NCBI GenBank assembly: GCA_032718475.1
Contig: JAUCBJ010007860.1
Coordinates: 70,901-134,900, forward strand
Reading direction: 5' to 3'
DNA: 64,000 bases
Source: Nemertoderma westbladi
Lineage: Eukaryota > Animalia > Xenacoelomorpha
The stretch's first letter is position 1; each line of letters starts with the position of its first letter. Made by a program: the position numbers and the translations under genes. The notes beneath the pieces are model-generated. The model did no database searches and was not told the DNA's origin. It was given only the letters and a program-made list of their open reading frames with translations. This document shows, piece by piece, positions 2,309-52,558 of the stretch.

Positions 2309-2454
2309 TCCAACCTTAAATGTATCCCTAATCTCCCACTTAGCTTCCCCAACGCACATTTGTAATAAAACTGAGTAATTCTGAAACAATTTGCTCCAAA
2401 TTATTGATTAATTTTATTCAAAATATAAAATAATATATTAATTTCAAAGAAAAT

Positions 2455-17538: not shown

Positions 17539-17642
17539 TTAAAGACGGGGCAAGCCGTCTGGGGGGAGGATGGGTGGCAAAAACCAAAATCCTCTCAACT
17601 TCGCATCGACAGCAGATATCGACAACTGGTGCGAAGGATGAT

Positions 17643-24280: not shown

Positions 24281-24299
24281 TTAAGGTTCGATTATTTAT

Positions 24300-24600: not shown

Positions 24601-25094
24601 TCGATTAATTATGGCAGTAGTATTACCGGTACACTTATATATGGGAGTCCCTGTTGGGTTCTAATTGCAGAGGATACCAAATCTCTGGATGGCACTTTCA
24701 TAAGAATGCTGCGCCGGGTTTATTGTGTCAACTACAATGAACACATCTCCATTGACATTGAAGGTGTTCAATTAGTCTTCTCCCCTAGCTTGACACTTGA
24801 ATGGAACCGCCTCCGTTTGCAGGACATTGCTTTCGCCGTGAGGACCAGCCAGTGCATAATCTTGTACTTTGGCAGCCTCATGGAGTGAATAAGCATGGTG
24901 GACAGCCCATGACTTTCTTGAGACGCATCTTAAAGGACACTGGCCTTGAAGATGCGGATGATCTAGCAAATGTCATGGGTGATCGGGAGTTGTGGCGGCG
25001 CAATTTTGTCGACAAGCCGGCACAGCATTCTTATATATGTAATACATACATAATGCAGCTGCAATGCAGCATGCCGATCGTAGTAGTAGTAGTC

Positions 25095-28432: not shown

Positions 28433-28809
28433 TGGACTCATGAACATCGTGAACATGTACATACAAGCAAGTTTCGAGCGCCCGTATCTCAAAATTTAAC
28501 TTTTCCTCAACGAAATCCAGATATTGTTACAGATTAGGAATCCTTGCAGCGTTACTTATTCAAATATACCAATAAACCACTACAAGGTTGAAAAATAATC
28601 GACTGGAGACACCTTGATAGTTGAGACCATTGCTCTTACGCAACGAGGACCATCCAATCATGATATTGTGCTTTGGCTGCCGCGTGGTGAGAGTAAGCAT
28701 GGAGGGCAGAGAAACCATGACATGCTTGTTTAGTTACGAATATTAAAGTACACTGACCTTGATAATCTCGCGACATAGGGAATCCTTAGCATATCAGCAT
28801 CTAACTTGA

Positions 28810-30617
28810 TGCCATCAATGATGCTGATGACAGCAGCAATCATCCCAGGCATGGAAATCGATCAACTTGCTTACTGGGCGGAAAAGCCAACCAACCACCA
28901 AGTTTAAGGCTGAATCACCAGCCGCTCGCCTCAATGGTTGGAAGGCCCACTTTGAAAAGCTCCTCAATAATGACAGGGTATTGCCTGATAACATTATAGA
29001 AGTAAAAGTCCCAGATATTCCCATTGTTGATATCTTCTTTGCAGAAGTGAAGGCTGCTTCAAAGAGCATTAAGAGCAATCGTGCCAGTGGAGTAGATGGT
29101 GTTCCCCCTGAGGTCTTTAAAATACCTGAGTGTTTAAAGCTCATCTATCCCATCATAGTAGACATGTACCGAACAACAAGAGTCCCACAAGAAATGAAAA
29201 CAAATAAGTTGGTGCCAGTTCCCAAGAAGGGCAACCTAACACTCTATGGTTCTTTCCGGGGAATCTCATTGATCTCGATTGCTGCAAAGCTATACAATAG
29301 AATTATATTAAATCGCATCAGGGATCCCATTGAGAGACTGCTCCGTGGAAATCAGAATGGGTTCCGTAAAGGTCGTGGGACCATGGAGCCCATTTTGGCA
29401 CTTAGAAGGATAATTGAAGAGTTATCAAAAAAGAAAGACAGGCATCTGGCTGTTATCTTTGTTGACTTCTTCAAGGTCTTTGATTCAGTCTCTCGCTCAC
29501 GTATGTTCAGCATACTTTCATTATATGGGATTCCTGATGAAATTATTGCAGCAATCAGATCAGTATACGATGGTTCAACAACATTTGTGTCTACTGTTGA
29601 CGGTGACACAGAACCATTTGAAGTGTTATGGGGCGTCCTCCAGGGAGACATATTTGCGCCATTCTTGTTCATAATTGTGGTTGACTATGTTCTACGCATG
29701 TCCTTAGATCATCATAATGATGATGGGGTGATCATATCTCCACCTACTGGCTCCAGAAGTCGAGGAAATCCTGCCAAATACCTATCTGATCTAGACTTTG
29801 CTGATGACTTAGGAGTACTCTCTAAATCACTAGAGGGAGCCCAACGGCTCCTCAGCTCATTAGAACATGCTTCTTCTAGTGTTGGTCTTTTTATTAACTC
29901 CAGAAAGACCAAAATTTTGACAGTTAACTTTGAAAGTCCTCAGCAAGTCTCTGATCGGATGAGCATAAGCTCAAAGATGGTATGCTTGAGCATGTGGACG
30001 ACTTCTGTTACCTGGGATGATGGCTCCGGAAGTTAGGTGAGGACCTTCGAATGCGTAAGGGAAAGGCATGGGCAGCCTTGAATAGGCTTTCCAGGATTTG
30101 GAAGTCACCGATAATTAATCGGAAACTTAAGGTCCGATTATTTAGGGCAGCAGTAGTTCCAGTACTCCTCTAGGGGAGTCCATGCTGGGCTCTAACTGCT
30201 GAGGACACCAAATCTCTGGATGGCACATTCACAAGAATGCTACACCGGGTTCATTGTGTCAAGTACAATGCACACATCTCCAACCAGACACTATATAACA
30301 TTGGAGGTGTCTCATTGGTTCCCCCAAGCTTGACACTAGAACAAAATCGCCTCATTGCAGTACATTGCTTTCGCCGTGAGGACCAGCCAGTGCATAATCT
30401 GGTACTTTGGCAGCCTCATGGAGTGAATAGAATAAGCATGGTGGACAGACCATGACTTTCTTGAGACGCATCTTAAAGGACACTTGCCTTGAAGATGCGG
30501 ATGATCTAGCAAATGTCATGGGTGATAGGGAGTTGTGGCGGCGCAATTTTGTCGACAAGCCGGAACAGCATTCTTAAAAATGCAGCTGCAATGCAGCATG
30601 CCGATCCTAATAGTAGT
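28810..30617 (+). mobile_element. 5'-truncated RTE-like LINE (RT), TSD ATCTAACTTGA
   Basis: RT ORF 28867-30036 (FRGISL, VDFFKVFDSV, GVLQGD, LDFADD) with downstream frameshifts; TSD at 28799-28809 and 30618-30628; TAG-repeat tail. Confidence 0.9.
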
Positions 30618-30974
30618 ATCTAACTTGAACATTTAAAAATGATGAGAAAATTTAATTTGATAATTGTAGATAATTTCGGCCAGATAGGGCTTCCAAAAGT
30701 ATAATCAAAGTTTTTAAACTTTAACTCACAATGTCCATCCAATTAACCGGTATTAAAATTGCATGGTAAGGTTTAATGACTGTAAAAAACCTTACCGGTA
30801 GGTGTGTTAGTACCAAAGTATGTATAAAACTAAAAATCAACAAAACCTAGACGTTGCATACAATCTGTGATCAGCTGACGGCAGCCAGCTGATCGGCAGG
30901 TTTCGCCCCGCAGTTGAAGGCATTCTCAGGAGGCCAAGTCAGGAAACGTAGAGAGAAATTCACAAAGTGATACG

Positions 30975-31242
30975 GATACCACATTTTTTGAAACCAGCAT
31001 GTTCATTTTCATAATATTTTTCGACCACTTTTTGTATTTTCATTTTCTATTTCTGATAATTGGAAAATATATAAAAAATATTAAAAAAGTGGGGAAATAT
31101 ATAAAAAATAATAAAAAAGTGGGGAAATATTATGAAATCATAAAACTGGTCGAAATTTATGAAGCTTATGAAATTACCTTTCATATAAATCAAAAATTGC
31201 AAAAAACGGTTGAGAAATGGCGGAGGAGTAGTATTTTTCGAT
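30975..31242 (+). repeat. AT-rich dispersed repeat, inverted copy of 33722-33737 + 52559-52815
   Basis: Near-identical reverse complement; both copies give the same spurious ORF in the track. Confidence 0.85.
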
Positions 31243-31762: not shown

Positions 31763-31932
31763 GTTGGTAGTATTTTACGGTCGATAATTGATTGTTTTAA
31801 TGTCTTAATTCTTGCACTTAGAAATTAGAAATTAGAAATAGACAGGCCTTATAAATTTGAATTTAAAATTATGTTCTAAAATTTTAAAATTTTTAATTAT
31901 TTTTTAAATTTTTAAAATTATTATCCCGTTAG

Positions 31933-33188
31933 GCAGTGAACACGAAAAGGAAGATTTTGAAGGTAAACTGACGCCAGATCATAAACTAGTTACCACTGAT
32001 CTCAACCATAGATGTGTGAAACATTTCCGAGGAACGAGTTCTGCGGCCCCATTGGCCGCCGGAATATTCGCCTTGGTTTTGGAGGCCAATCCCGAACTGA
32101 CATGGCGCGACCTTCAGCATATAATTGCCAGGGGCAGCCACATCCCCAACCCGCAGGAGGACGGCTGGTATGTAAATGGCGGTGGGCGCCATCTTAACCG
32201 CGGATTTGGATTTGGGGTACTCAATGCCGGGAAGATGGTTGAACTGGCCTTGTCATGGAAACCAGTAGGCCGTCGACATGTCTGTAAGATAAGGTACAGC
32301 GGAGGTGCGATTAAGTTTGGTCCGGGTTCACAATCGATCAACCTCATTACGACCGGATGTCGGAAGCTACCCAGTCGGATCTCCAACCTGGAGCACGTGC
32401 AGACTGTAGTCTCGTTCCAACACCAGCGCAGAGGTTCTGTATCCATCACACTCACCTCCCCCCAAGGAACCACATCCCAGATGTTATCGAGGCGGAGGCT
32501 GGATGACTCTGCCGAACGAGTCGATAGTTTCCCCTTCATGACGATCCATCACTGGGACGAGAATCCCGTGGGTGTGTGGAAGTTGTTGCTCTCAGGCGGG
32601 AAGGGGGGCGGAACCCTGTACAACTACACCCTAGTGCTATCCGGAACATCGTCGGATCCGGAGAGCGAATCCCGGGACACTCCCGAATCGATTTACCAGA
32701 TGTACGAGGACGAGATTGGCGAACCGAAGAACGTCGAGTTCAAGGGGGTCGTGGTCGATCCCGGCACTTTGGCTGACCCCGTTGAGATGCAGAGTAAGGC
32801 TGTCAACAGAAAGGTTGAAGGTTCGTTTAAATCTCAGAAAGAGTCAGAGTTAAAGTCTCGGAAAGAGAAGGAATCTCGTAAAGACGCTGAGTTGAAATCT
32901 TTGGGTAATCTGGATTATCAGAAACAGAGAGAGGCGGAGTTGGATTCTAGTAAAGTGGTTGTAGAATTGGAATCTAAAAAAGAGGCAGAGATGAAATCTC
33001 GGATAGCGTTGGAATCCAAAAAGGAGACGGATTTGGAATCCCAGGAAAAGGGCAAAGGATATCGGCAACGACGATTATTTCGAGATACAAATAAATTATC
33101 GAATGTTAAATTGCGTCATTTAAAAGCCAATAGGTGGGCATTAACTCCACGACAAGTGATGGATATACAAAGATTATTGAATAAATAA
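31933..33188 (+). CDS. Proprotein convertase exon 5 (catalytic Ser, P domain, charged tail)
   Basis: AG at 31931-32; GTSSAAP, LEANPELTWRDLQH, LEHVQ, RRGS, FMTIHHWDENPVGVW; stop at 33186-88. Confidence 0.93.
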
Positions 33189-33737
33189 TATTAAAAATTT
33201 TAATTATTGTATTCTTCCTGATTCAACAACTTTCTCGATATTGGTTCAGTTTGGCCGTAATCACAGGAAATACAAACCAACTGAACCATACATGTACGTT
33301 TCCGGACCGTATGAAAACAGAATAAATCTGAACTTTCTGAACAATTAAGGAAAAAAGAAATTAAATTCCCCTCCCTCGGAAGAAATTTCATATAAACTAT
33401 TAAATGTCAAAATTTCAAATCTGAAAACCGCTTAGAGAGATCTCTTTTAGTTCTCTAGTTATCGTGGAATATGTCTGTCAAAATGTAAGACAGACAAACA
33501 ACCGACCGACGTAGGCCTACAGACTAGATTCCACTAAATGTTAAAACTGACATCGGAAAAGAAATCAGCGACCCCGAAAACCCATTAAATATAATTTTAG
33601 CTCGGTGGTGTGCTTTCTTCCTGTCAGACAAATTAACCAACCAGACCCCATGCGTTAGTTTTGACTTTGAGCGAGCAGGATTGAACATTTAAGGCAATTA
33701 TCTCTGTATGACATTCTTTCAATCGAAAAATACTACT

Positions 33738-34995
33738 TGTTCGCGCTTTTGAAGACCTTTAGCAGTTTAACCTGCCAAAATTTATATGTCTTTTAGTTAA
33801 TTAAAACCACTTTAGCATATGACAATATTTTATGCTAATACGCAAAACATTAGCCGAAGGCAGCCCATGCGCGATCATTCACCCGATGGATCTACACCCG
33901 GGAGGCTGAATTCGGATGCTTAAATTGTATTATTGCAGTGTAAGGTTGCAGTGTATACCTACTGTATTATTCGATAGATCGTTAATAATTAATCTCTGAC
34001 ATATATTATTGGCTTTCGGGAAATATTAACAGTTCCTTTAGGACGTGGCGCTTTATCTATTTAAACAGAACTAAGACTTATACTAAAACGCAACGATACT
34101 GCTTATGATTAAAGTATAAAGCGTATTCTTTAGGAAATACTTTGTTACCAATCACAATCATACACACTATTCTGCCGACCGTCAGTATATTTGATCATAC
34201 ATAAAGAGAGCAGCAATTGACTCACGTAGGGTCTGCTAAATAACATTGGATTCAATACACACCACATTAATATAAATCGCAATTGTTATGTATAGCCGGT
34301 CTCTCTAACCTGTAGTGTTATCAAGAAAATTGGGAATTTGGGTGATTTATCCGTATTATCCAAAGAGCAATATTTCCATCAACAAATAGGTACAATTAAT
34401 AACTGACAGTAAATAACAGTACAAACAATATGATTAATGCAGTTAAATTAAGTAAGTATGTTAAGATGCGTTAAAATTCGATTGATTAATTAGATTCGAT
34501 TCGGTAACAGTTTATACTTTCGATAATTTAAGCAGTTTTACTAGAGTTCTTCCCAAAAGGCCGGTGTTTCTGGCTTAGACAGCAATAACAACAAAGTATC
34601 AAGTAAAAACAGTAAGACTGAACACTCTCCTTATGATCGGCTGAAAAGCTACACGTCGACAGGAAAAATCGCTCTGATTGGCTCAAGCCAAACAAAGAAC
34701 CATGCGTCCAATGGCTGTTTCCATGTCAGCAACCAGCTGTTAGATGTCGTAATATGAATCATCACGGCTAAGCTGTGAAAGGTAGTTGGTGCATTACAGG
34801 TTTTTTGCCTTACCATGTCCGCCAAAACACGTATATAGCAGAATGATTTTTATGTCCGTTAAAACACCTGTAAAGGTACCTTGCGGGCGAGGGGAATATA
34901 TATACAGTTAGAGAACCCTTTTAGAGTATTCCAGCGCCTGGGGGGAACTGGCCAGCAAAGGCAAACGTATCAGTTATCCCACAAAAGCTTTTACA
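33738..34995 (-). repeat. 3' LTR of element 2
   Basis: About 2 differences from 51301-52558 seen by eye. Confidence 0.96.
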
Positions 34996-35073
34996 CCGCT
35001 CCCAGAAAATGGGATTTAAGTCTATAAAATATACAAAATCACAGTTTCTAAAATATAAAAATACTCTAAACAG

Positions 35074-38000
35074 TTAGTCTTTCTTGCGCGGACGGCGTTT
35101 ACGCAGTTTTTTAAAGCTAGCAAGAGTCCTTTTCTCTTTGGGGCGAGCCACTTTACGAGGAGGGCTATAACTCCTGGGTGAAGGGTGCAATATGATTGCA
35201 TCAGAAGGTATGGGATTGCGATCGGTATATCCGCCGGTCGAAGTACCGGGTTGATTGACCTCAACGTCCGGGGAGAGGGGTCTAACGGCTTTGAGAGCTC
35301 GTTTCAAGACAGCCGCTCTTACGGGTCCTGTACGAGTGGTCTGCACGAGGGCCGTGGGTGGACCATAGGTAGTTAGAAACTTCCTTGGTTTAATGGTTCT
35401 TTCCAACTCGCGTTCGCGGGCTCGGTACTCGTAAGGCCGTCGATATACTTCTTGTAACTCAGGGTGTGAGTTGACGAATAAGTCTCCATAGGCAGGGTCT
35501 TGACGGATAAAGTTTATTAAGTTGTAAGAATGGATGTCACTCGGATTAATGCTCCTGAGGAATTTGCGTACATATTTGGTTGAAATACATTCTCCAACGC
35601 GCTTCAATAGTTCATAACTTGATAGGCGCGATTTTTGCTCGACGGAGGCAAACAAATATGGATGGAACGCATAAACTCCTTCGTAGGCGCGTCCAGGATA
35701 ATAGCGATGGCGTGAATCACAATGTAAATCAGCGTTCGCTTCCCAAGCTCTGATATAACGTAGTACAATCATCTCATCTACGCTCTCTAAATCATGGTTG
35801 AAGGGACAATCAAAGCTGGCGTGTCCTTTTAATTGACAATGATGGCATTGAGTCATAAATTTGGGGCAGACCCCAAAAATGTGCAAATTATTAAGCCGAC
35901 AATATGCACAATAGATTTCCATCGACGGTTGCTTGTGGAAATAGGAACAAAGATCGTTGGTGTCCATAGACGTAATATGGTCTCTCGATGCGCACAGCCG
36001 ACAACGTTGTCTAGAAACATAATTGGCATGGCGATAATCATACGCAGTAAGACACTGGGGACCTTGATACCATTCCAATATGTAGTCGCTATCGCTACTC
36101 CGAGACGTGGGGGGTTGAATCTCTTCAGATTCTAAACATATGGGTTCGTCTTCCCCTTGTATAGTTGAGGTAGGCATGGCCGTCTCCTCAAGTGGACCTA
36201 CCGTCTGAATTTCCACGACAGAATAACCGGTGGGGATCCGAGGTCTTTGAATAACCGAGGAGTGCAGGTTTATTATACAAATGTCTCTGAAAATAGCGAA
36301 TCCAGCGCTATCTAACTTCTCCGCAGCCGAGTCTCTTAAGCTGAGCTTGGTCAAAGCGCGGTCTTTGAATTGGCTATCCACGTTGCGAAACGGGGTTAAA
36401 AACCGTCGGAAACATTCAAAGCGGATGAATTTATTATGTTCATCTAGCTTAGCGAGTTTGGTCCCAAGGATTAATGGATGGGCGCGTATAGTACGACTGC
36501 ACACATCGGCTAGCCAACCGGAAAGTGCGGTGTTTTCGAAGATCGTGTAGATAGCTAAGGAGGGACGGAGTGGAACACTCATGAAGCTATACACGGCGCC
36601 AGGTGCGGTCAACGGTCCGTCAAAGTATAATCGAGAATAATGGTCTCCATATACTTGTTGATAATTGATGGGATTTCCGACCTTGAAATTCCACCCGTAT
36701 TCCTGAAAGGCGAGATGTCCGATGGAAGTTCGTTGCACCTTTGTAATGTTGCTAGACACATTAGCATACATGGTGCGAAAGACCTCGGCCTTCGGCCCAA
36801 GGAGCTATCAGCTGAGTATCCACGAAAGGATAGGGGATATTCTCCATATTCCGAAAGTCGTTTTGGAGATCTCCGTAAACAGCTGAGCCGATTTTAACGA
36901 TTCTTTCGTTGAATAACATCTCGAGAACGGGCTGGGGTAACATCGATCCATCGATACCCATGGCCGGTTTGCGTTCGGTGTCAATGACGTAACGCTGCGC
37001 GAGTTCGAATTGTCTATGTCGGAGATTCTTTTGCGTTTCGGTGAGAGTTTCGAAGGAATAATCGATCACGTCGGAACACGCTCGCGTAAACACGTGAGTG
37101 GAGCCAGCTAATCCGCGTATGTGTATCATGCGCGTAGTTCCTAATTCTCCGATTGGAACGCTACCTTCGTTATCATAAGTAACAACGCCATACATCTCAA
37201 TGATATTAAGAGTTTCATTCCACTCTTTGGTGGCGTTCTCGAGGGTCATCCCTACTGGATGCCACAAGGTGGCGCATTGATTAGCGTCAGGGAGATCACT
37301 ATACTTCATATATCGAGTGGTATACGTCTCCACATTTCCATATCTTTGGATTTTCTCCTCCTCGAATAATACGTCTAGATTTCAATGGACTAATCGAGTT
37401 TTAATAAATCCATCGAGGTTATAAGGAGGTTCTGTATCCTTCTCTATTCGAGAAACGTTGTATGGTTTTCGAAATGAGTTTGCCTTTACTAATTGATCCA
37501 GATGTTTTTGCAATTGTTCGAGTTCGACAATGTCTAGAGGATTTATTAGTGGTAGAAACTTTAAATCATGCGTCGGATCTTCTGGTTTTACCATATAATA
37601 TTGAGTCAGATTAACGTAATAAGGGTGATCTTTAATTCCATAAAAAGAGTTCTGTAAAGGTCTAGCGCGTATGTTGACATCGTGTACCATACGACGGACA
37701 AGATCCGCTCGATTGTCCGGAGGTTCAACGAGTATACCGTCAACTCGAGCGGCCTCGATTGGCGGACGCTGTAACATAGGAGCGTCAGCGATAAGATTTT
37801 GCGATCTTATGCTGATATCAACCGGTTGGGGTTGTATCTTTGCGAAAAGTTTGTCTCCGAAATGCGGAACCATCGAGGGATGACGGACGGTTTTAGAGTA
37901 GAGATCGGTTATGAGTATCTGAGTTTCGGGTTGGGCTAAAGCGGCTTCTTCTCTCTCATCCATTTCCGTATGTCTCTCCTCCATTTGATTCTCCTCCGCC

Positions 38001-39325
38001 TGTTTCTGTAAGCGTTCTTCCAGAAACTCCTGTAGAGAATACGTACGTCCAAGCTCGATGTCCTCTTCGAGGTTTTGGATTTCTCTATCAAACTGCGGCA
38101 AGGCTAGCTCTTTCACCGATTGGACCTGCTGCTGTAATTTACGTTTCTCTAGAAAATCCTGGGTTCCCTTTCCGATTTTCTGTCGGATGGCGTCAAGAGC
38201 GTTTCTGATGACACTCTCCTCGACTTCCGTGGCAGGTTGTATCGGAGTTAATCCTGGCCGGTTGTAAGGATTAAATGGCGATGTTAGATGTCCGCGTCCC
38301 AATCCGGTCAAATAGGATGGTCGAATATCCAACGAACCTACCTCAGGAACACCACCGATTAACTGCTCGGGCAACACCAAATCCTTGAACAGTGAGTATA
38401 ACTCGGGAGGATCAGTGAGACTGTTAGGATCAAGAGTTTGAGGTCTCACGGGGAAATGGGGAGGTCTGACCGAGTATTCCGGAACTCTGATCATGGGTTT
38501 ATTTAGCGATCGTTTTAGACGGGCGATCGTAGGTGATACATCGAACAGGTTTCGCTCGAAACTCCCGTAAGTATAACGCGTGAAACTGTGTTTAGCACAA
38601 CGTCTCCGCGGATGTTTATGTCTTTCCGTTTGCTGGTTAGGTCTAGGACATGAGTCACAATAATACCAAAGACGTACGTCCTGCAGAGGAAACGCGGGTG
38701 ATCGTTCACCAGTTTTGCAATACTCTTCCATTTGTTCAAAACTGTCCGGGACAACAGGCAGTGGACGATCTGCGGTAAGATACATCATGGTGAAATAGAG
38801 TCGTTTGAGTTCTACCATGGGATCGTGATGTATACCTTGAGGATATCGAGTCTCTAGGTTCTGTTGACTGGCAATATTGAGATAGGTTTCCCGCAAAAAT
38901 TCCACGTAGTCGTTGAAGTTGATACGCTTATCGGGTTCTTCAACGTTTTCTCTGTCGAGTAGGTGGCGAATAGAGTTCTCGTGTTCTATTCTCGGTTTAT
39001 CATTACGATTCCGCTGAGAATGATATTTAAATAAAACCATTTCCCTTTCAGTGTCTACATCATCGGTATCATGTAAATCGGTGGGATGGCCGGTAGTTAA
39101 GAAGTCCATATACGTACCATTGCGATTCGTATAGCGAGCGGTGAATTTTCTATAGTCCGCTTCACGCGTAAGTTGTTCCTGGGACATCGGCGGTTTGATG
39201 TAACGACCGTCGTCCTCCGTAATAGTCGGATCGGCTTCACCGCGTATCAAGCTATCCACAAACGCTTGTAAAGGTAGAGTATATCGCTCTCTAATACCAA
39301 GGTCATCTTCTATCAATTCCGTCAT
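35074..39325 (-). pseudogene. Accessory ORF of element 2 (~1414 aa reconstructed): unknown N-terminus, DEDDy-like 3'-5' exonuclease, three Cys/His knuckles, basic tail
   Basis: Track ORFs 37382-39325 and 36761-37333 are in frame across a single TGA; a 7-bp duplication at 36784-36797 explains the shift to 35074-36771; motifs VVTYDNEG, LPQPVLEMLFNERIVKIGSAVYGDL, FVDTQ, CHHCQLKGHASFDC. Confidence 0.75.
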
Positions 39326-40944
39326 ATCTGCTATCTGAGTTTGTTAATATCAATATAAATTAGTATTTTAGGCAAGCGGGCGTCGCTGCCTATTAGGCTT
39401 TTTGCCCCCGGACAGTGGGTTTCTCAGCGCCGATGTACCGTTGTCGCAGTGTTTACGCCAACATGTAGCAACAGCACGACAACGATAACCGGCACAAGTC
39501 CCACCACTGTCCGTCCCAAAGGCTTGAATCCACTTGAGGTTATCTCGGTAGAGTTAGGGCTATTTTACAATTGCGATTAGCTACTGTAAACACACTTTAG
39601 TAGTAACATTCACCTATAAACGCACAAGTTCCATACAATCATTACTTACTGCACACATGCATGCCATTTGTCCGTTAGTCAGTGTCTTCCAGAATGTCAC
39701 GTTATTACTATGTATCCTTGGATACTAATAGTGCGCTATGTATACTCTTATGCTACGCAATGGGACAAGCTTTTATTGTTCCTTTAACTTGCTTCTAATT
39801 CTAGCGTGGGTGTTGCCATGGTGACATTATGGAAAACTAGCGGTAGAATTAGGGCAATTCTCATGTATACAGATCTGGGATGTTATTTAATAGTAATTCT
39901 TTAATTGTCAATATCCTCTTTATGCATGATTTTATAAATTTTATCGGCTATTGACTATATGTTGGAGATTCTCGCACTCTAATACACTCAATTTGAATCT
40001 CCGCTCCCATGATCTATTAATTACTGGAATTTTGGGAATGTTATAAATTGTACAAAATGACAATTTATGAAATTCATTTGAATATGAATTTAAATTTATT
40101 CCCGTGAATTTTATTATTTGATATTAAATTGACATAAATTTTATTCCAGAGCATATCTGGGGACTCAGGATCCTTAATTCTGTAAAATAGTCCTTCTAAG
40201 AATATCGGTAAATACTGCGATATCTTAATTGACTAGAAATTTTAAAGGATCGGGATTTTACAGATTTTAACAAATATTAAATTAATATTTAGGATGGGCA
40301 CCAATTTATTCCAGAACTTGTCTGGGGACGTTAACCACTGATTCTAGAATTTGTCTTTCAAGTATATCGGTGGGTGCCACGATATCTTAATCGACTAGAA
40401 TTACAGATGGTCAAAAGTTTAACAGATTTATTTGCGATTGACGCTACTGTTAGAGGGACATCACGCTACTATATGTATTATTTGTTATAAGGTAGAAGAG
40501 CAATATCGCACGAAGCAATGTCAGTGTGAAGAGGCAAGTCGTTTCCAAGGTCTACCCAGAGCCTGGTTTAGCCGAGACACGAGGATCTGAACTTTGCATT
40601 CCTAATACTCTGCCTACCAATAATACTTAAATATAGTAGTGGCTTTATTGTACTTTAAGAAGTACGGACATGTCATCTTACTATAGTCTCGTATTTATAA
40701 TATAATACGGACAGTAAGGAAAGAGAAAATAATTACTTCTTGCCGTCGCACTAAATATATATTATAAGTAATTATGTACGTAATAAACACTAATATATTG
40801 CACTAATCTACTAAACATTCTAAAATAACATTTTACTAAATAAAATCAAATAAAAACGATTATAATAAAGTACATAATAGAGTTCGCATATAAAATGTAA
40901 TAAAATCGATAAATTAATATAGTCATACACCCACTCCAGACGTA

Positions 40945-43900
40945 TCACGTTTGGGAGTCCCTAGATGTTTGAGGTATTAGGGAGGTGGTCGTGGGAAGAG
41001 TGTCTTGTCTTCCATAGTTTCCGGAGAGTTCTCTGTCTCTTTCCAGCAAACATAAACGACCAACTGGGCGATTGAGTTGTTGCGTCTCAAAGATTATTCC
41101 GGGTTTCTTGAAGTTACGCCTCATTACGACGAGTTCTACTGAGCGCACTAGACCATCCTCCGAGATGTGCGTCTCGATGATACGACCGATCTGCCACCGT
41201 CTACGTGGGAGGTCCGGATCTACAATAAGGACCATGTCTCCGGCGCTGACATTTTCCTGCTGCGCAAACCACTTAGTTCGAAGTTGTAGCGTGGGCAGAT
41301 AATGTTTCTCAAAATGGTCAGCGAAACGACGGGATAGCAACTGCATAAGCTGCCAAGTTCGACGACAGTATTCATCTCCATCGGCAATCTCGGATTGTGG
41401 GAGCATGGCTACAGGTTTCTTAAGTAGGAAATGCGCGGGTGTTAGCGCTTCCAGGGAGTCGACACTCGATGAGACTGGCATAAGCGGTCTCTCGTTAAGA
41501 TAGGCAGCGATTTCTTCCATTAACGTCCGTAGAAGTTCGTCGGTGAGATATGCGCGGCACGGCACTATAAAGTGAAATGCGGTCTTGACACTTCGAATTA
41601 ATCTCTCCCAACTTCCTCCCCACCAAGGGGCGTCGGCGGCGTTAAAGGTCCAGCTAGACGCCGTTATCCGTAGCTGGTCATCCACCTGTCTTTGATTCCA
41701 GTCCTTTACGTAAGCCTGGATTTCGTTGTTGGCACCAATGAAGTTCGTTCCCTTGTCGGATCTCATCGTATTGCTAGTGCCGAAACGAGCGATCTGTCGT
41801 CGTAGACATAAGACGAAGCTGTTAGTAGATAGATCGTTCACCATATCGAGATGGATAGCTCTACAAGTCATGCAGACAAAGATTACACACCATCTCTTGA
41901 TTATAGTTCTAGCACGATATACTTCAATAGGGCCAAATAAATCCACACCAGTATTAGTAAAGGGTGGTTCATAAAAGCTTACTCGTTCCCTAGGTAATTC
42001 TGCCTCTCGCTGTGTTAAAGGCCTACTGAATACTTTCCTACAAGGTATGCAGTTCCTAAGAACTTGATTCAGAGCTCTACGTGGTTTATGAAAATAATAG
42101 CGGGTTCGAATCTCGCTAAGAACTCGTTCTCTACCAGCATGATACAGTTTACTGTGAACATCTACAATCATCTTGATTTGTACTTCAAGATTACTAATGA
42201 GTATAGGGAATTTAGTATCAAAAGATAATGGAGCGTTGGTAAGTCTTCCTCCAACGCGTATTAACCCATCTATCATTGTGCTAGAGAAGCGATCCCTTAA
42301 GCGCATCTGCGGATTTCTTAATAGCAGAAAATACCTATCGGAATCTTCATAGCATTGCAATAGTCTCAGTAGCTGCTTATTAGTTTCTTCATGCTCCTGG
42401 TAGCTGATCTTCTCCTTTAGAAACCGGTCTGATATCTTGTACTTAGGTAGATCTTTAATAACATGAACTTGCGCAGATGTTACCGGAGCAGGATCACTAG
42501 TGGTCTTCTTCCTGGAGTAATGATGGTGAAAACATCTCTTTAAGTATGTGACAGCTTTACAGAGACGATTCCAGGAACTGTAATGATGCAGTGCTCTCTG
42601 CAGCAGGGGTGAGATTCCTTGCGAGACGTCTGGTATCTCAGATTTCCAATTTCTATCTCTAATTTCCACAACAGATTTGTTTGTGGCGAGGGATTGTGGA
42701 TCCGAAGTATCGTTCTTGGCAGTATGTAATACAGATAGATCGATTGTCGGTTTAAATAACTTCGATTTACTTGTCCGAATTTTGGGTTTGACTTTCTCCG
42801 CTCCCTTGGCTTGTCTAATCTCAGCCGTAGTAAGGTGAGGAGGCCATTCATCCTCTTCCTTGCTTAAGAAGTCGGGTCCACCCAACCAGTCAGGGGTATC
42901 TATCAGTTCCTGTGGAGTTGCTCCTCTGGAGGCGATGTCAGCTGGGTTAATCGTACCAGGGCAATGTCTCCATTGATCTATCGTTGTGCGACTAAGAATA
43001 ATGGCCACTCTGTTAGTAACAAAGACGCTGAACTGACAGACTTCATTCGTTATATATTCCAATACAAGTAAAGCGTCGGTCCAATAAACGGTTTTCTCCA
43101 GTGGATAATCGATCTGTTCTGTTACATTCCGTCCGATAGCGGTAGCGTATAATGCTGCCTTTAACTCCGCTCGAGGAACCTTAAGCTTGTTGTTAATCAA
43201 TGCCTTAGAGGTAACCAAGGTAACTTTGATTCCATCCGGAGTTTCGACTCGCAGATATGCTATGATACCGATCCCCATATCGCTGGCATCTCCAAATACA
43301 TGGAGTTGATAGGAATACGTAGGGAGAACATGACCAAAATATGAACGGGAAATTATAAAGTTCTCGATGGCAGGTAGCGAATCCTCCCATTTCATCCATT
43401 TCTTTAATAGTTCTCCCTTGAGTGGATCGTCCCACGAGTGGTTTTCTAGCCACATTTGTTGTACTAAACTCCGAGCAATCAATATAACTGGGCTAATAAA
43501 TCCCAAGGGATCGAAATAAGTGCTCAGAATACTTAAACAAATCCGTTTGGTCCGAACTGGATTATCTCGCTGTTTTAACTGAAAAAACAGGATGTCCCGT
43601 TCTGTGTCCCATTTCAAGCCAAGCGTCTTGGTTTCCGGAAGATCATCATGTATTAAGTCGAGATCTTTTGATCCCCGGTCTTCTACAGATATTGCTTCCA
43701 GAAACTCACGGGAGTTGCTGGTGAACTTCGTCAACCGAAATCCACCTCTTTTCAAACACTCAACCGTTCCTTTCGCGACATCAATGGCTTCCTTTACTGA
43801 TGGAAGGGACTTTAAATTGTCGTCCATGTATATGTCTCGTTTGATGTTATCTATCACCTCTTTGGAGAAGGCATCCCGGTTGTCATCCGCAGTGGTACGG

Positions 43901-46900
43901 ACCACTGAACAGGCGTTTGAAGGGCTTGATATAATCCCAAAAGCCTGGATGGTCATCCAGTACTCTACCGGTGTCTGGTTGAGATCTCCTTCAGGCCACC
44001 ACAGGAATCTTAGGCTGTCTCTATCACGATCCAACGCCTTGACTTGTAGGAACATTCCTTCTATATCGGAGGCGAACGCGATGGAATATTGTCTTAATCT
44101 CAACAGTATCCCCAACAAAGATTGGAGCAAGTTGGGTCCTGGTAACAACTCGGAATTAAGGGATTGGCCCATATATAGAGCGGAGCCATCAAATACAACC
44201 CGTACTTCATGGGGTTTACCGGGTTTGGGAACATAATGATGTGTTAGATAATAAGTCCTTTCAGTTATTGGAGTTCCTTCCGGTACTCGCTCCGCATATC
44301 CCTTTGTGATAAATTTCTTCAACTGAGTCTGGTACATTTCCTTAGCTGAAGCGTTCGCCGTCAGACGTCGATGTAATTGATTGATTCTTTTCTCAGCCAA
44401 GGGTCTGTTATTTATAAATCTGGGTTCACGTTTTCGGAAGGGTAGTCCGATTTCATATCTACCTTGATCTTTTAAAAAACGTGTGGTTGTTTCCTGGATT
44501 TGCTTGGCTCTTTCTTCTTCTATCGACAGGGCTTTGTCGTATGAATTGGGTTCTACCAATTCTTGGGTAAAGAATCGTACGGCGAGTTCGTCCCGAGTTC
44601 TAGCGTTGTAGCGCTCTACCTCGTCATTAAGTTCGTCATTATAAATAGTGGATTCCGTTGGGCGAATCAATTGACATAGGTTCGTTTGGTTTTTCCAAGT
44701 TTGGTTTTCAGTAAGTAGGTCAATTGTGTTCTCTTCTTCGAAGAGTTGGTAGATGTCGTCATTATCTGAGGAGTATGGGGTTCCCTCAGTTGGTTCGTCC
44801 ACTTCGCTGTTTTCCTCTTCCCAATCACTTACCTGATCTATTTGTTCGTGTGGCATTCTCTCTTCTAAAGTTCTACGGGAAGGGCCAGTAAAGTACCAAC
44901 CTACTCTAGTTCTTACCGCATAAGTTTGCAGTGGCTGTGGTTGAGCAGGCCGTTTCTCTAATGTTTCTAGCGCCTCGTGCGCGTTTTGGCCGATAAGTAT
45001 TTGCACTCCAGGATAATCTGTCTGGAATCGAGGTATCTTAAGGTGTTGGACGCTCTCATCTTCGTCCCAATCATAAAGGTCTGCTTGAGTAGTAGCAAAG
45101 TTCTTTATAGCCACCATTTTTACTGACCTTACACCTTGTGTTCCTAACTTATCCTGGGGGGTGGACAACACACCTACATAGTAATCTGCCGTCAGGGTAG
45201 ATTTCCAAACCTGCATAATTCCTGACATATTCAATTTAGTCCGGAACTTGGGTTGTCCAGCAAAGATATCTTCGGCTAGCTCTTGATCGATGAATGTTCC
45301 TGTGCTGCCTGAGTCAAGTAGGGCGTTCACTATGTAGCTTTTGTTAATACCATGAACTCTTACCTGAACTACAGGAAATTCTCTGATTCCTACATTGGAA
45401 GTTGGAGCTTTCCAAGATGATTGTTTGGTAAAAGTAGTAGGGGGAAACTCCTCGTTGATGTCCTTTTCGTAAGTAAGTGCTCGATACACTGTGGTGTTTA
45501 TTAAATAACAGGATTCGTTGACGTCGGAGAATTCGTCAGTATAAAATCCTTCCATCTCAGACTCCTGATCAGTGTCGTTTACATCACTGAATTGGACATG
45601 TAGTTCGGACTCACTTACCTGACTCGGCTTGTCTCGTTCGAACTCACTATGTAACAAGATGTGATGTTTCGCACCACACTTTTCACACTTTATGTCGGAG
45701 TAACAGGTTCGCCGTTGGTGTCCTGGTCTGAGGCAATTATAGCATAACCGCTTGTCCCACACAACTGTACGTCTGTCTACAAGGGATTTCTTTAGAAATT
45801 CCGCACACGCACTCAAACGGTGGGTCCCGTCGCACAGCGCACAGTTAGGTTTTATGTTACTTACTTTACCTTGGGTAGTCTGATGCACTCTCGTTCTTTC
45901 TTCGGGCTTTCTTCCGCGCATTCTGCTAGGAGACTGAGGAGGGGTCTTAGTAACCTGTTCTCTCCTATTGTTGGTTCGAGCTTTGTATTTACTTACGTCC
46001 TTAGAGGTCTTGTCAATATAATAAGATCGTTCGGTGTCTTTCCCGCTGTCTTCGTCTTGGGAAGCTTGGCTTTCGCCGTCGTCAGTGTAACACACCGGTG
46101 TTACTCTCCTCCTAGAAGTAGGTTTCTCACTTACCTTATTTTCCGATGTTTTCTCTCTGGACTGCTTGATGAGTTGTAATTTGACTTCACCATCTAAGAA
46201 AGACATGAGATCAGCCATGGTAGGACTTCGTCGTTGTTGTTCATTCATGTACAACACTTTCTTGTCCCAGCGTGTACATACTCCACCCTTTGGTAAAGTA
46301 GAGACTACGGCTCCAATAACCATGGAACTCTGGTATTCGTGCGACTTACCTAACCAGTCCAGTTGTCTACAGATCTCTTGAATTTCATCGGAAAACTCTA
46401 TAATCCCACTGCTAAGGAAGTGTCGGGGGGCTACTAATTTTGCATACAAATACTTAGCTATGTTATCCTTGTTACCATACCTGATGTTTAATGTATCCCA
46501 AACTTGTCTTAATCCATCTGGATGTCCAATAAACTTTAACGCCATTAACTTGGGAGGTCCTTCCAAACACTTGATGAGGAATCTAAGTTTCTCTCCGTTA
46601 GATAGTACAGAGTTCTGTATACTATCTTTGTAATATTCGTTGAAAGGTAACCATTTCATCTCATCTCCATTGAATTTGACGATCTCTCCCACTTTGACCG
46701 CTTGGCGGGCTTCTGTTCTAGCCATCTGACGCGTAAAGCTTTCTTGGGCCATCGCGTTATTTAATATCGAATTATCGGTATACAAATTTCTCGGATCATT
46801 ATCAGGTCTATAGGGAATATCATTAATAACAGGTCTATAATCACCCTTAATAGGGTTTGCTATAGGAGTTTCAACTTCACTAGCAGTATAGATGCGTGTA

Positions 46901-49122
46901 GGCTCCACACCTTGCGCATGTAATACTTCAGACCTAACGGGTTGACACAGTGTTACAGGGGGCATTGGTATGCCTTTTTGTATATTGACTAATTTGTCGC
47001 GTTCTAGCGCGATGCTTTGCTGCACTTCTTGCAACTCTGCTCTACCTTCCCTCACTGTTCCCTTAAGTTGGTGGACAGTCTCCTGCATCTGTCCCAGCAG
47101 GAGATTCATCCCCCGCCGTCCCTCTTCCACCCACTCAACCGCCGAAGCGGGAGTCGCCAACATAGTAGCGGGCTGACGCGGGACGACGGGAGACAAATTA
47201 TTGATTTCTCTCTCCGCTATCTGGACAGGGGTATTTGCAGGGACTGTTCCACCGGGTACAGGCAGTGTAGTGCTATGTAAAGGGAATTTAGAGTTAAGCT
47301 CTGGAAGTGTAGGGGTCTCTAGCACAGAAGTGACTTTGGGAACTACAGGCCTAATTATTTCAGGTTCATCGACTATAGTAGGGAGTCTTTTGACCTGGAT
47401 AAATTGTTCCATGGGTTCTGCACTACCTAAATCTGTGCTAGTTAGCTGTCTTTTAACAGCTGGGGGCAAATCAGGCAATTTGCGACGGTAATATGTTTTT
47501 CTTCGTCTACTTAGATGGGATCTATTTCCTCCGCCTTCAGGGTCGGTAGTATCGCCTTCCTCCGAGGATGTGTACCCCTGGCGCTTGGGAGTAGATTTTC
47601 TCATCATCTGCATTTGATTAGCAGTAAACTGTTTATTTATACTGTCTTGTGTCTCTTGCAGATTCTCCAACTCCAGTTGAGCAGTCTGCTCAAATGCTCT
47701 CCTTTCTGCTTCTGCGACTGCCTTTGCCACCGCCTTTGCTGCTTTTCTTTCTGCTTCTGCATCTGCCTTTGCCACCGCCTTTGCTGCTTTTCTTTCTGCT
47801 TCTGCATCTGCAGCCGCTGCCTTTCTTTCTGCTTCTGCATCTGCCTTTGCCACCGCCTTTGCTGCTTTACTTTCTGCTTCTGCATCTGCTATAGCCGCCG
47901 CCATAGCCGCCGTTTTTTGTTCATCTATCCTTCTTTTCTTTATTTGTTCTTCTCGGACTCTAGTGAGGCGGAGTTTTTCATCACATTCAGCTTGGTTTGC
48001 AGCTAACATTTCGGCATCGATTGAGTCCAACACAAGCTTGGTTCCTTCACTATTAGGGGAAAGTCCAGACAGCCGTCTCCTCAACTCTTCGTCTCCTAGG
48101 AATCGCTGATAGTCGGACAAATAAATGTCGATAGCGTCTCTAGTTCGCGGTTTCTCGGCGGCCTCTTCGCTTTCCGCTTGAGCAAGGGTGACATCAGTTG
48201 GTTCGGTGACATCAGTTGGTTCGGTGACATCAGTTGGTTCTTCATAGGTTGATCTCTCAGCCAGCTGGGATTTCCACTGGGCTGTTTCCTGTACTTTGAG
48301 ATCTACCCGATGTAGCCAAGTTTTGACAGCAACCTGCAGCGACGTGTCCTGTCTTCTTTTGGAAGTTTCCTCAAAGGCTGAGAGGATTAGTCGAATGCGT
48401 AGGGTTCTTTCGCGTACTTGGTATAGCAGCTCTTCCTACTCTTGAGGTCCGTGAGGTTGTCGAAACAGTTGTTCTTCCAATCGCTCCAAGGATCCGAAGA
48501 ATCCCTGCACATATCCTGCTGCCGACCTCTTCCAAACAGCTGGATCCATTGTATCTTTAGCCACTCCCATCCTGTGTATATCTTCCCAAGTAGCCTCGGA
48601 CATATCCAACGGAAGTCCGAGTCCGGGAATGTTCCATTGTGATTCAACAATAGATATCAATTCTTCCCTGGCGTATCCCGCGTAATTATCTTGGGTCGCT
48701 CACTTATTCTTCGCCCAGTCGGCTTGATGTTCCTCCACCGCAATGAATATAGTAGTTAGCACTGCAGCAGGAAGAGTAAGAAGGGGGTCCGAGTAGACTG
48801 TATCAGACATCTGCACTCCATGTTCGGGAGTCAGCTCTACAGTATCCGAACTGCTGGAGCTATCGGGTCGCTGTGAAGTAGGTTCTTGACCAAGATGTTG
48901 CTGCGATAGGACAACTGCCTCCTGGTCCCGTTTTACCTGTGCCCGAGTGCCTATGATGGACCTATGGTGGACTAGCCTAGGGTCTGATACTACTGGAGGG
49001 ATGACCTTTTTTACAGTAGGAGGTGAGCCGAACTCCTTTCTTATTCGCTCCACACTCCTATCTGAATCACAAATAGTTGTATCGATCAGACTGTCTGACA
49101 GGTTTTGCTGAGTGTCAGACAT
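40945..49122 (-). pseudogene. BEL/Pao gag-pol of element 2 (~2725 codons from ATG 49122; in-frame stops at 48700 and 48436, open from 48435 to 40945)
   Basis: Triple gag knuckles, ALLDSGS, YMDD, HVFGDAS, NPADIASRG, integrase HHCC and SDKGTNF; the start MSDTQQNLSDSL is shared with element 3. Confidence 0.93.
47695..47900 (-). repeat. In-frame 42-bp coding repeat (AEAERKAAKAVAKAD) in gag
   Basis: Visible tandem repeat; the array differs in element 3 (61250-61410). Confidence 0.85.
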
Positions 49123-51300
49123 GTTTAGTTATACAGTTGAATGTCTACTACTATAGTTTCAGTTAAAGCAAGTCTGGTAATTCAGTATGACCGCAAGCCT
49201 AGCGATTTATTACCGGTACCGTTACTCGGTGTAACGTGATATATACACAATATATTAGAATACCGGTATGCTTATAATATATAAGTATTATTACAGACTA
49301 GATTTGTCACAGAGTACCGGTATATAATTTTAGCACAAATATATATATATATAGTAGGCCTATAATGAATACCGGTATACAGCTTACACTTACAGCATGT
49401 AAGTATAATTATGAACTAGAATTAATTACAGAGTACCGGTATGATTTCAGCTCAAATTTATAGAGATAAATATAATAAGCCTATAGTGAGTACCGGTATG
49501 TCAATTATTTTAGAATAATTGAATCTCTGAATATTTTAGGGCTACTTGGTTACTTTAACTTACTTTGTTACCGTTATTTAAGCAGTAGTCCAACTGATAG
49601 TGAGACCTAGTTGTTGTATGGCAGGCCTACTATTTATAAATCGTTTGAGTTGATTTATAATATTTATATACCCGTTATATGGGTTTTTGTCAATATTTGA
49701 AATAAATGTTATTATTTCTGGGGGAGTCACTACACAGAAGCTGAACGCCTCTCAGTGAAGTACTATTTATTTGACACTAAAACTGATAATTCTAATTTAC
49801 CTAAGTTACTTAATACTACAAATTACTTACGATACGGGTGAGATCAATTCTCTAATTAAACACAACAAAATATTACGTACGAAATTTTTAGGGTAATTTT
49901 ACAGGAAGTCTACAAACCAGTCCAACAAAGGGTTAGATTTCTGGTTATTACAAAGGACAGGGTACTACGGTATTTAAATAATAAGTAGTAGTAAATATAT
50001 TGTACTGTCCAGATAGGAAAATACCACCGCCTGACGACCTATAACCGTATCGCTATAGGTACTACGTTATGTATCCCGGATTGTTCCTACCCAGAAGCTA
50101 ATAGAGCTAACGAATGTGCCTATCAACCACTTTACAACACAAATATACTGCCTACACTAATTACTTCGGAAAGCACTGTACACTAAACCCTAAATTAGGT
50201 ACAAGTACCGGTATAACAAATAATCAGTAGTTAAATATACTTGAACAGTTAAAAGAACCACGGCATCTGCTGGAGTGACCGAAGCACAAAGTCGTCAGTC
50301 TTTACCTACGCCAAGCAGCCCTGATGTAGTACCGGGGTTAGTTTAACTATAACGGTATGTGTAACAAACACAATTACTGTAGGAATAAACTTGGGGACAT
50401 GAATGTTGCGAATAATCGCATAAACTCTGAATAATAAATATTACGCTACCCGTACAGAATACTCAAACAAATACAAACCAAAACGCTGGCAGACTACTAT
50501 CAAGCCTAAACAAACTACAGTATGTGCAGATTCTGAAACTGTTAGTTAGTATGCGTTCTAACACGGTAGTACGACTTACTCTTTAAGAGGGGATTGACCT
50601 TACCGCTTATGGCTGCCCCAACTTACTAACGGCACTTTATCAGACCAACTCTACACACGCAGCAATCCCTTCAGGCCTAAGAATAGCTAGACAACAATCC
50701 AGCCTACCAATATTTGAGTAATAACTATTACGGTACCTGAACAGACCACACAAACAAGCACAGGCTAAAACACTGGCAGACTACGATCAAGCCTAGATAA
50801 ACTACAGTATATGCAGACTCTGAAACTGTTAGTTAGTATGCGTTCTAACACGGTAGTACGACTTATTCTTTAAGAGGGGATTGACCTTACCGCATATGGC
50901 TGCCCCAACTTACTAACGGCACTTTATCAGACAAACTCTACACACGCCGTAATCTCTCCAAACTCAACAACAGTCAGACAGCAGCTCAGCCTACAATTAT
51001 CTGAACAATCTGAGCAGGGTCACACGCCTTCTGCTCAATATTAGCCTACTAGTAAATAAAACCGACAGAAATAAGTAGGATCTCAAATAAAAATCAGGGC
51101 GGCCGTTCCCCGATTAAGTACCAAGACCTACCGGTATACAACAATCAAAATCGAATAATACTAATGTACTTGTACAGCAGTACCGGTACCGGTGATGACA
51201 GTTAGGCCTACTGACCTACAGAAGCACCGGTTCAGTTTTACCAGTCACTACGGTATTTTGCAACCTTATTGCTTACTGCAATAAGATTATAAACTGTTAC

Positions 51301-52558
51301 TGTTCGCGCTTTTGAAGACCTTTAGCAGTTTAACCTGCCAAAATTTATATGTCTTTTAGTTAATTAAAACCACTTTAGCATATGACAATATTTTATGCTA
51401 ATACGCAAAACATTAGCCGAAGGCAGCCCATGCGCGATCATTCACCCGATGGATCTACACCCGGGAGGCTGAATTCGGATGCTTAAATTGTATTATTGCA
51501 GTGTAAGGTTGCAGTGTATACCTACTGTATTATTCGATAGATCGTTAATAATTAATCTCTGACAGATATTATTGGCTTTCGGGAAATATTAACAGTTCCT
51601 TTAGGACGTGGCGCTTTATCTATTTAAACAGAACTAAGACTTATACTAAAACGCAACGATACTGCTTATGATTAAAGTATAAAGCATATTCTTTAGGAAA
51701 TACTTTGTTACCAATCACAATCATACACACTATTCTGCCGACCGTCAGTATATTTGATCATACATAAAGAGAGCAGCAATTGACTCACGTAGGGTCTGCT
51801 AAATAACATTGGATTCAATACACACCACATTAATATAAATCGCAATTGTTATGTATAGCCGGTCTCTCTAACCTGTAGTGTTATCAAGAAAATTGGGAAT
51901 TTGGGTGATTTATCCGTATTATCCAAAGAGCAATATTTCCATCAACAAATAGGTACAATTAATAACTGACAGTAAATAACAGTACAAACAATATGATTAA
52001 TGCAGTTAAATTAAGTAAGTATGTTAAGATGCGTTAAAATTCGATTGATTAATTAGATTCGATTCGGTAACAGTTTATACTTTCGATAATTTAAGCAGTT
52101 TTACTAGAGTTCTTCCCAAAAGGCCGGTGTTTCTGGCTTAGACAGCAATAACAACAAAGTATCAAGTAAAAACAGTAAGACTGAACACTCTCCTTATGAT
52201 CGGCTGAAAAGCTACACGTCGACAGGAAAAATCGCTCTGATTGGCTCAAGCCAAACAAAGAACCATGCGTCCAATGGCTGTTTCCATGTCAGCAACCAGC
52301 TGTTAGATGTCGTAATATGAATCATCACGGCTAAGCTGTGAAAGGTAGTTGGTGCATTACAGGTTTTTTGCCTTACCATGTCCGCCAAAACACGTATATA
52401 GCAGAATGATTTTTATGTCCGTTAAAACACCTGTAAAGGTACCTTGCGGGCGAGGGGAATATATATACAGTTAGAGAACCCTTTTAGAGTATTCCAGCGC
52501 CTGGGGGGAACTGGCCAGCAAAGGCAAACGTATCAGTTATCCCACAAAAGCTTTTACA
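51301..52558 (-). repeat. 5' LTR of element 2
   Basis: Direct repeat of 33738-34995. Confidence 0.96.

Follow-up and report, generated by a model that had tools for sequence, protein, structure and literature searches.

A BEL/Pao retrotransposon of Nemertoderma westbladi with an accessory gene for predicted exonuclease and zinc-knuckle domains

We describe an accessory gene in a BEL/Pao retrotransposon, here called element 2, from the xenacoelomorph Nemertoderma westbladi. The element lies in a stretch of 64,000 nucleotides (nt) that we refer to as the window (NCBI GenBank assembly GCA_032718475.1, contig JAUCBJ010007860.1, positions 70,901 to 134,900 of the forward strand; coordinates below count from its first letter). 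The gene occupies the env position, between pol and the 3′ long terminal repeat (LTR). It is almost certainly a real, selected accessory gene with exonuclease and zinc domains, and it is open across the family, although the copy in the window is broken. In our preferred reading, to which we give roughly one chance in three, its product acts on the small RNAs of host silencing. The parts of the gene and its lesions are as follows:

35074..39325, minus strand: accessory gene of about 1,400 codons, in the env position; this copy is broken
37382-39343, minus strand: frame 1, 653 codons, first ATG at 39325
36761-37381, minus strand: frame 2, 206 codons, in the same frame as frame 1
35074-36804, minus strand: frame 3, 576 codons, in a different frame and overlapping frame 2
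37382..37384, minus strand: single in-frame stop parting frames 1 and 2
36761..36804, minus strand: frameshift zone within the nuclease domain, with a length difference in other copies at ~36781
37385..39325, minus strand: N-terminal ~650 amino acids (aa), with a charged stretch that looks helical and one Cys/His cluster (aa 223-246)
36490..37200, minus strand: DEDDy-type 3′-5′ exonuclease domain, from sequence profiles
37174 (Asp) and 37168 (Glu), 36871 (Asp), 36549 (Tyr) and 36537 (Glu), minus strand: residues of ExoI, ExoII and ExoIII, respectively
35656..36003, minus strand: three Cys/His zinc motifs and a conserved ~50-aa segment after them; the last motif is a CX2CX4HX4C knuckle
35077..35157, minus strand: basic C-terminal tail, predicted to be nuclear-localization-like or RNA-binding
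39326..40944, minus strand: 1.6-kb non-coding spacer between pol and the accessory gene

An initial annotation of this DNA, made from the letters alone, had joined the three frames into one gene by repairing two lesions. We searched 1.84 billion representative proteins with a read-through of the gene that had an X at the frameshift. P0008 matched over the zinc region (E 8e-6) and P0009 matched across the frameshift (E 1e-5); a third relative, P0014, was reached via P0008. All three come from ENA assemblies, are unbroken and 575-650 aa long, and have the exonuclease-plus-three-zinc-motif layout. The conserved segment after the zinc motifs is also found in them, whereas the ~650-aa N-terminus is missing. 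Members of the P0014 cluster are 99-100% identical to one another. By sequence, then, the exonuclease-plus-knuckle core is not unique, but part of a small family of 575-650-aa proteins.

These relatives show that frames 2 and 3 belong together. P0009 aligns in order to the end of frame 2 and then to the start of frame 3. Of the 1,121 stop-to-stop segments in the window, a hidden Markov model (HMM) built from the three intact relatives alone matches only frames 2 and 3, and the matches are collinear (E 2.8e-8 for frame 2 and 2.6e-7 for frame 3). Because P0009 spans both frames in order and the relatives-only HMM picks only these two, frames 2 and 3 are one gene at the level of sequence, without recourse to read data. 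Together with contigs that lack the stop (see below), these matches uphold the joining of all three frames. The larger searches were less informative. For the C-terminal piece, none of the 3,544 candidates in a search of 5.8 billion proteins was a longer relative. A profile search returned only P0009; since it missed P0008, these searches are insensitive. No locus of the gene or its relatives was found in viral contigs, metagenomes, prokaryote genomes or plasmids. The N-terminal ~650 aa, which the initial annotation had called unrecognizable, indeed have no match in Pfam, PDB or PHROGs, although no Atlas or large-protein-set search was made for that piece. Single-sequence searches of PDB gave no relevant match for frame 2 or the N-terminal piece, and PHROGs gave nothing useful for the gene.

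The exonuclease had been placed in the WRN/EXD branch of DEDDy enzymes, and profile comparison agrees with this. A profile of the relatives’ nuclease parts and frame 2, compared with PDB, matched Egalitarian (E 1.2e-5 and 2.9e-4), EXD2 (E 2.8e-3) and RNase D (E 1.1). Up to E 10 there are six matches: four to DEDDy proteins and two, at E 0.5-0.7, to photosystem chains, which are noise. A profile from P0008 and P0009 alone put the same proteins first, at values that are not significant (E 0.16 and 0.33), and hhalign gave 19% for the nuclease part against E. coli RNase D. The exonuclease domains of Egalitarian, EXD1 and EXD2 are the best sequence-profile matches across ExoI-III; unlike the accessory gene, they belong to host genes, in which no zinc knuckles follow the domain. 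Every motif quoted in the initial annotation is present: YDNE (ExoI) at 37177, VYGD (ExoII) at 36880, YTIFE at 36549, and Cys clusters at 36003, 35910 and 35847. The ExoI D-x-E and the ExoII D are invariant in all four sequences at ~25% identity, and align with the Egalitarian motifs. The tentative ExoIII reads Y-x3-D in P0008 and P0014 and Y-x3-E in the window protein and P0009, and aligns to motif III of Egalitarian. The zinc region matches the nucleocapsid of human immunodeficiency virus 1 (HIV-1) by profile (E 4e-5 to 2e-4), in keeping with the knuckles proposed earlier. In the Atlas, the nearest cluster to P0009 is an exonuclease+CCHC cluster from Euglenozoa (0.86, below the threshold of 0.9 set by the tool; a lead only), which we infer to be the Trypanosoma brucei RNase D (TbRND). 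The second cluster is EXD1-like, and the best value for the C-terminal piece, 0.77, is noise. No transmembrane segment was found in the three pieces. The maximum 19-residue hydropathy is 1.34, which speaks against an env-like third gene with a signal peptide and membrane anchor; the initial annotation had likewise seen no such signal.

Other copies of the family were compared as short contigs from four of the six listed sequencing runs that contain this stretch; the four belong to four public studies with two organism labels. Contig depths do not equal copy numbers and were not read that way; counts of contig pieces, indels and mixed-frequency variants rest on listed cases chosen by support. 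The family is abundant, with 37,445 contigs aligned in one run. The stop at 37382-37384, correctly recognized as a lesion, is absent from every covering contig in each run (46, 30, 7 and 5 contigs; 100% of depth per run). Between 36450 and 37450 there is exactly one listed length difference, at ~36781, and it occurs in all four runs (6, 1, 2 and 2 contigs; 59, 42, 100 and 100% of depth). The stop is therefore private to this copy, other copies also differ in length at the frameshift zone, and the gene is open family-wide. The second repair is not supported. It had removed one unit of a 7-bp duplication; the near-repeat exists, and the length difference lies next to it, but that difference does not amount to seven missing letters. 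The exact protein length and the junction peptide derived from this repair are therefore unreliable.

The pattern of variation indicates that the gene is maintained. Among the indels listed between 35000 and 41000 (12 of 57), 11 of 12 fall outside the accessory gene, and contig alignments show that the spacer collects the indels of other copies. Listed contig pieces are gap-free in 24 of 26 cases within the gene, including pieces that are 12-15% diverged, versus none of six in the spacer. In the nuclease region, we took the best-supported 40 of 228 variants and left out the stop. Of the remaining 39, 31 are synonymous, where the mutation spectrum would lead one to expect 32% (p 2e-9), and none changes a catalytic codon. 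Selection, proposed at the outset as a check on the gene, is thus borne out for this region.

These data bear on whether the gene might be a passenger or an artefact: a captured host gene fragment, a nested insertion or a set of motifs that arose by chance and do nothing for the element. The copy in the window has two breaks in the accessory gene and two in gag, its own near-fixed differences are near-neutral (8 of 18 synonymous, p 0.2), and the third-position composition of the gene is slightly unlike that of gag-pol. However, such a reading has to account for a frame that is open family-wide with a synonymous excess and that needs no introns. A nested insertion, in particular, is contradicted by the lack of terminal repeats in the spacer or the N-terminal part and by coverage of every bin (30 of 30) between the edge of the 3′ LTR and pol in each of the four runs. 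We consider the passenger or artefact reading largely refuted, and very improbable. As a separate observation, positions 35074-39325 carry at least 18 near-fixed differences from the contigs, where the LTR clock expects about 3 (upper bound 12, p 0.07). The broken copy may derive from a template that was defective before it was moved in trans, or the runs may represent another population. Run X5 contains a derivative whose internal deletion (36156-38966) takes out the nuclease domain, and run X1 has matching loose ends.

How might such a protein act? The third gene of element 2 would encode a DEDDy-type 3′-5′ exonuclease domain followed by three zinc-binding motifs. It would be expressed from a separate accessory message that probably starts at the LTR promoter and is spliced. 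There is a branch-point-like CTAAT at 39363, with candidate AG acceptors at 39335, 39331 and 39328, just 5′ of the accessory ATG, and the leader and LTR are long, with several donor-like sites. The acceptor-like signals, together with the basic tail, suggest that the product is spliced and possibly nuclear. The knuckles would grip single-stranded RNA while the nuclease trims its 3′ end, presumably by the two-metal chemistry of a 3′-5′ exoribonuclease, as in TbRND. We consider active RNA trimming probable, and 3′ trimming the most likely chemistry because the protein has the same domain pairing as TbRND with the acids kept. The C-terminal CCHC fingers of TbRND are described as binding single-stranded RNA and enhancing the 3′ trimming of guide RNAs (PMC7797062).

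According to the reading that we prefer, the accessory protein would act in trans on silencing small RNAs or their precursors, such that host small-RNA silencing of the element is blunted. Viral DEDD nucleases serve immune evasion. Host silencing RNAs are our first choice of target on four grounds: a factor of the PIWI-interacting RNA (piRNA) pathway is among the nearest profile relatives, copies of the family are abundant, some derivatives lack the nuclease, and cargo of a similar kind recurs in other retroelement lineages. The nuclease-less derivative in run X5 is as expected for a product that acts in trans. The piRNA factor is Exd1, of the Egalitarian/EXD branch, which is described as acting in this pathway while being itself inactive (bioRxiv 10.1101/2025.08.03.668247).

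Several points weigh against this reading. First, nothing points directly to silencing RNAs as the target, and a function in cis would more readily account for strong selection at the level of copies. Second, activity is open to doubt: the fourth acid is Glu in the window protein and P0009, not Asp, and Egalitarian is reported to keep all DEDDy residues although they are dispensable for its known function (bioRxiv 10.1101/2025.08.03.668247). Third, the likeness to TbRND is one of architecture only, as TbRND chains are not among the PDB profile matches at E up to 10. Fourth, Pfam does not recognize the nuclease domain; the three separate pieces have no Pfam match, and the X-joined read-through gives only weak knuckle matches. 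Two single-sequence AlphaFold models were unusable (predicted local distance difference test scores of 31 and 33), so the assignment to a DnaQ/RNase H-like fold rests on sequence profiles. Lastly, six of the eight listed mixed-frequency variants in the N-terminal part are non-synonymous. The selection claim therefore does not extend to this part; the open frame is kept there, and evidence of selection is confined to the nuclease region.

If catalysis is dispensable, the protein could instead be an RNA adaptor that, like Egalitarian or the CERV protein of Cer1, binds genomic RNA for nuclear export, transport or protection, with the N-terminus as a scaffold. The best profile match is Egalitarian, in which kept catalytic residues are dispensable, and the altered fourth acid fits the same idea. 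So do the basic tail, the splice-acceptor-like signals and the long leader and LTR with their donor-like sites, and CERV is a precedent as far as it is described (PMC10309623). An adaptor of this kind would not explain why the acidic residues are invariant among relatives at 25% identity. The proposed scaffold is missing from those relatives, and CERV is likened by description, not by sequence. We regard the adaptor as a tentative and, on balance, unlikely alternative. The third place of EXD2 among the profile matches raises the further prospect of a WRN/EXD2-like enzyme that trims the ends of cDNA or removes aberrant cDNA; the superfamily is described as including single-stranded DNA exonucleases (PMC5408684). 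However, the CCHC knuckles and the Egalitarian and RNase D neighbors favor RNA, and pol already has an integrase and RNase H. A nuclease for DNA ends is thus quite unlikely.

DEDDy cargo in the env position is already known from bdelloid rotifers. Juno and Vesta are Ty3/gypsy-type elements. A DEDDy ORF3 is described in these LTR retrotransposons and in Athena/Terminon (PMC5408684; PMC6431247), in line with the initial annotation. The ORF3s of Juno, Vesta and Athena and the gene described here share the exonuclease in this position, the absence of a transmembrane segment and an altered acidic motif. Compared by motif and published description, the rotifer motif is DEED, whereas that of the accessory gene is D-E-D-E (D-E-D-E/D with its relatives). 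Unlike the rotifer genes, the accessory gene has a BEL/Pao host element, three zinc motifs, a ~650-aa N-terminus and purifying selection. The rotifer ORF3s that were sequenced (env-like and GDSL) are reported not to depart from neutrality (PMC5408684). TbRND, our best working model, likewise has a DEDDy exonuclease with tandem CCHC zinc motifs after it; it is described as a host mitochondrial enzyme with four canonical fingers and a short linker (PMC7797062). The accessory protein differs in having a ~160-aa linker and one canonical knuckle among three motifs, in addition to the missing profile match. The architecture had been called unfamiliar. It was not found in the BEL/Pao literature searched, and in that respect the statement stands; the core, however, is shared by the 575-650-aa relatives, and the domain pairing is known from TbRND. 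No report of a DEDDy gene, an exonuclease-knuckle fusion or self-priming in BEL/Pao was found in the available text of the literature searched, including PMC8742986, PMC3118150 and PMC3601003; supplements, Repbase reports and most subscription papers were outside its scope. In the available part of PMC3118150, the words “nuclease”, “PBS” and “primer” do not occur. Since the rotifer report, which in its available part showed neither activity nor selection, it has been a question why RNA nucleases repeatedly occupy the env position of retroelements. The family of element 2 adds evidence of selection, three relatives that are unbroken by nature and an architecture with a solved functional analogue in TbRND. 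Should silencing RNA prove to be the target, the protein would be a counter-defense enzyme of an animal retrotransposon.

The host element itself is complete, and its structure is unusual in size and in its priming site:

33738..52558, minus strand: element 2, a complete BEL/Pao (Belpaoviridae-type) LTR element, 18,821 bp, with TG...CA ends
51301..52558, minus strand: 5′ LTR, 1,258 bp, from self-comparison of the window
33738..34995, minus strand: 3′ LTR, 1,258 bp, from self-comparison of the window
35003-34996, minus strand: short purine-rich tract just 5′ of the 3′ LTR
40945..49122, minus strand: gag-pol frame, with ATG at 49122 and stop ending at 40945
51288..51300, minus strand: primer-binding position directly 3′ of the 5′ LTR; its first 8 nt contain no TGG, and next comes a 9-bp hairpin that element 3 also has
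52067..52079, minus strand: 13-nt LTR site, a candidate self-primer and perfect complement of the first 13 nt of the leader; a second copy is in the 3′ LTR

Element 2 is flanked by a 5-bp target-site duplication (52559-52563 and 33733-33737), and its LTRs differ by two mismatches over 1,258 bp. The long frame (40945-48435) has Pfam matches to DUF1759, a weak aspartyl protease (Asp_protease_2), Peptidase_A17 (E 8e-36), Integrase_H2C2 and DUF5641. As originally proposed, it is a BEL/Pao element by its protein domain set and the order protease, reverse transcriptase, RNase H and integrase, with priming that is atypical by sequence. In gag, in-frame stops at 48702 and 48438 precede 2,496 open codons; because of these two stops, this young copy is probably non-autonomous. 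Both stops lie in a ~0.9-kb stretch that is absent from a related element, element 3 (57549-64000, plus strand; 78-80% nucleotide identity, 73% protein identity in gag), which leaves the window before the accessory region. The 2.2-kb leader of element 2 contains a 290-bp tandem duplication (50428-51004) that is present in element 3 too, and the spacer contains two copies of a ~163-bp repeat (40140-40400) 5′ of the accessory gene. Element 2 shares with Belpaoviridae the gag-pol domain set and order, the LTRs and an optional third gene. It departs from the ICTV description of the family, which gives a genome of 4.2-10 kb and a primer-binding site of 18 nt that is the complement of tRNA-Arg or tRNA-Gly (PMC8742986): element 2 has 18.8 kb, no such primer site and a third gene that is not env-like.

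The lack of a tRNA primer site, which the initial annotation had missed, opens a third candidate role for the accessory protein. No tRNA-type TGG lies within 0-5 nt of the 5′ LTR end, although no tRNA library was compared, so priming by a half-tRNA is possible. There was no tRNA or Rfam match. Instead, the first 13 nt of the leader are the perfect complement of LTR positions 480-492, and when the two are paired, the 3′ end of the LTR site stands at the LTR boundary. Only 2 of 3,000 shuffles, and none of 2,011 other leader positions, do as well. In element 3, a different leader and a different LTR site are again exact complements, over 12 nt (57991-58002 with 58756-58767; 1 of 3,000 shuffles and none of 2,055 other leader positions). 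Cross-pairings between the two elements reach just 8 and 6 nt. The 9-bp hairpin 3′ of the leader site has one compensatory pair between elements 2 and 3. Folding of the predicted RNA forms the duplex across ~780 nt, with pair probabilities of at least 0.9 for most of it. No TATA or poly(A) signal is conserved that places the 13-nt site in the transcript. A published criterion for self-priming is a complement of at least 10 bp between the LTR and the sequence 0-5 nt past the 5′ LTR (as described in PMC6317226); elements 2 and 3 have 13 and 12 bp, with compensatory changes. In Tf1, the leader after the 5′ LTR is described as pairing with an LTR-derived site (PMC4600332; bioRxiv 10.1101/2022.12.06.519325). 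In self-priming of this type, the primer is the transcript’s own 5′ end, set free by cleavage. Element 2 shares this geometry with Tf1/sushi; those elements are chromoviruses, whereas element 2 is BEL/Pao and its pairing is predicted from sequence and folding. Element 2 may therefore prime without a tRNA, from its own LTR as in Tf1.

For a primer to be cut from a longer RNA, a new 3′ end must be made, and the accessory nuclease could make it, trimming the element’s own RNA to the 12-13-bp LTR:leader duplex and leaving a 3′-OH for reverse transcription, while the knuckles, which resemble those of HIV nucleocapsid, help annealing. The missing tRNA-type site, the self-complements beyond shuffle controls and the stable predicted duplex fit this role. 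However, another BEL/Pao element in the window, element 1, has a weaker self-match yet no nuclease gene: 9257-9268 pairs with 9451-9462 at 11 of 12 positions, with one mismatch, and the 9 nt that are perfect are reached by 47 of 3,000 shuffles. Furthermore, there is no evident route for the accessory protein into the particle, and in Tf1 the self-primer step is reportedly carried out by the RNase H domain. We consider maturation of a self-primer possible, though doubtful, and as likely as the adaptor role; neither is far behind the preferred reading. If it is the element’s own RNA that is trimmed, this would be a new way of priming reverse transcription. A broader proposal, that element 2 represents a giant, tRNA-independent BEL/Pao lineage with its own primer-making zinc-knuckle 3′-5′ exoribonuclease, and that the 575-650-aa relatives are a wider family of such retroelement nucleases, is more speculative still, and rather improbable.

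Other features of the window lie outside element 2. Element 1 (8907-20304, plus strand) is a young BEL/Pao element with 541-bp LTRs that are 99.4% alike and a 5-bp duplication. It has an 801-codon first ORF without a Pfam match, no long ORF past pol and no TGG primer site; the first ORF was compared with the accessory gene and rejected as a relative. A 258-bp sequence occurs twice, identical and inverted (30975-31232 and 52558-52815), and one of the two copies immediately borders the 5′ LTR of element 2 on its outer side; the repetition may reflect a segmental duplication or another repeat. At 31908-33188 (plus strand), 550 bp from the insertion site of element 2, there is a furin/proprotein-convertase-like frame with the end of an S8 domain and a P-domain, and LINE fragments lie upstream of it (20796-25091 and 28806-30618). 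Lastly, an intron-less SAMHD1-like gene (2434-3873, plus strand; E 1e-97 to SAMHD1 chains) has no SAM domain in frame and adjoins a 31-bp satellite at 1-2400.

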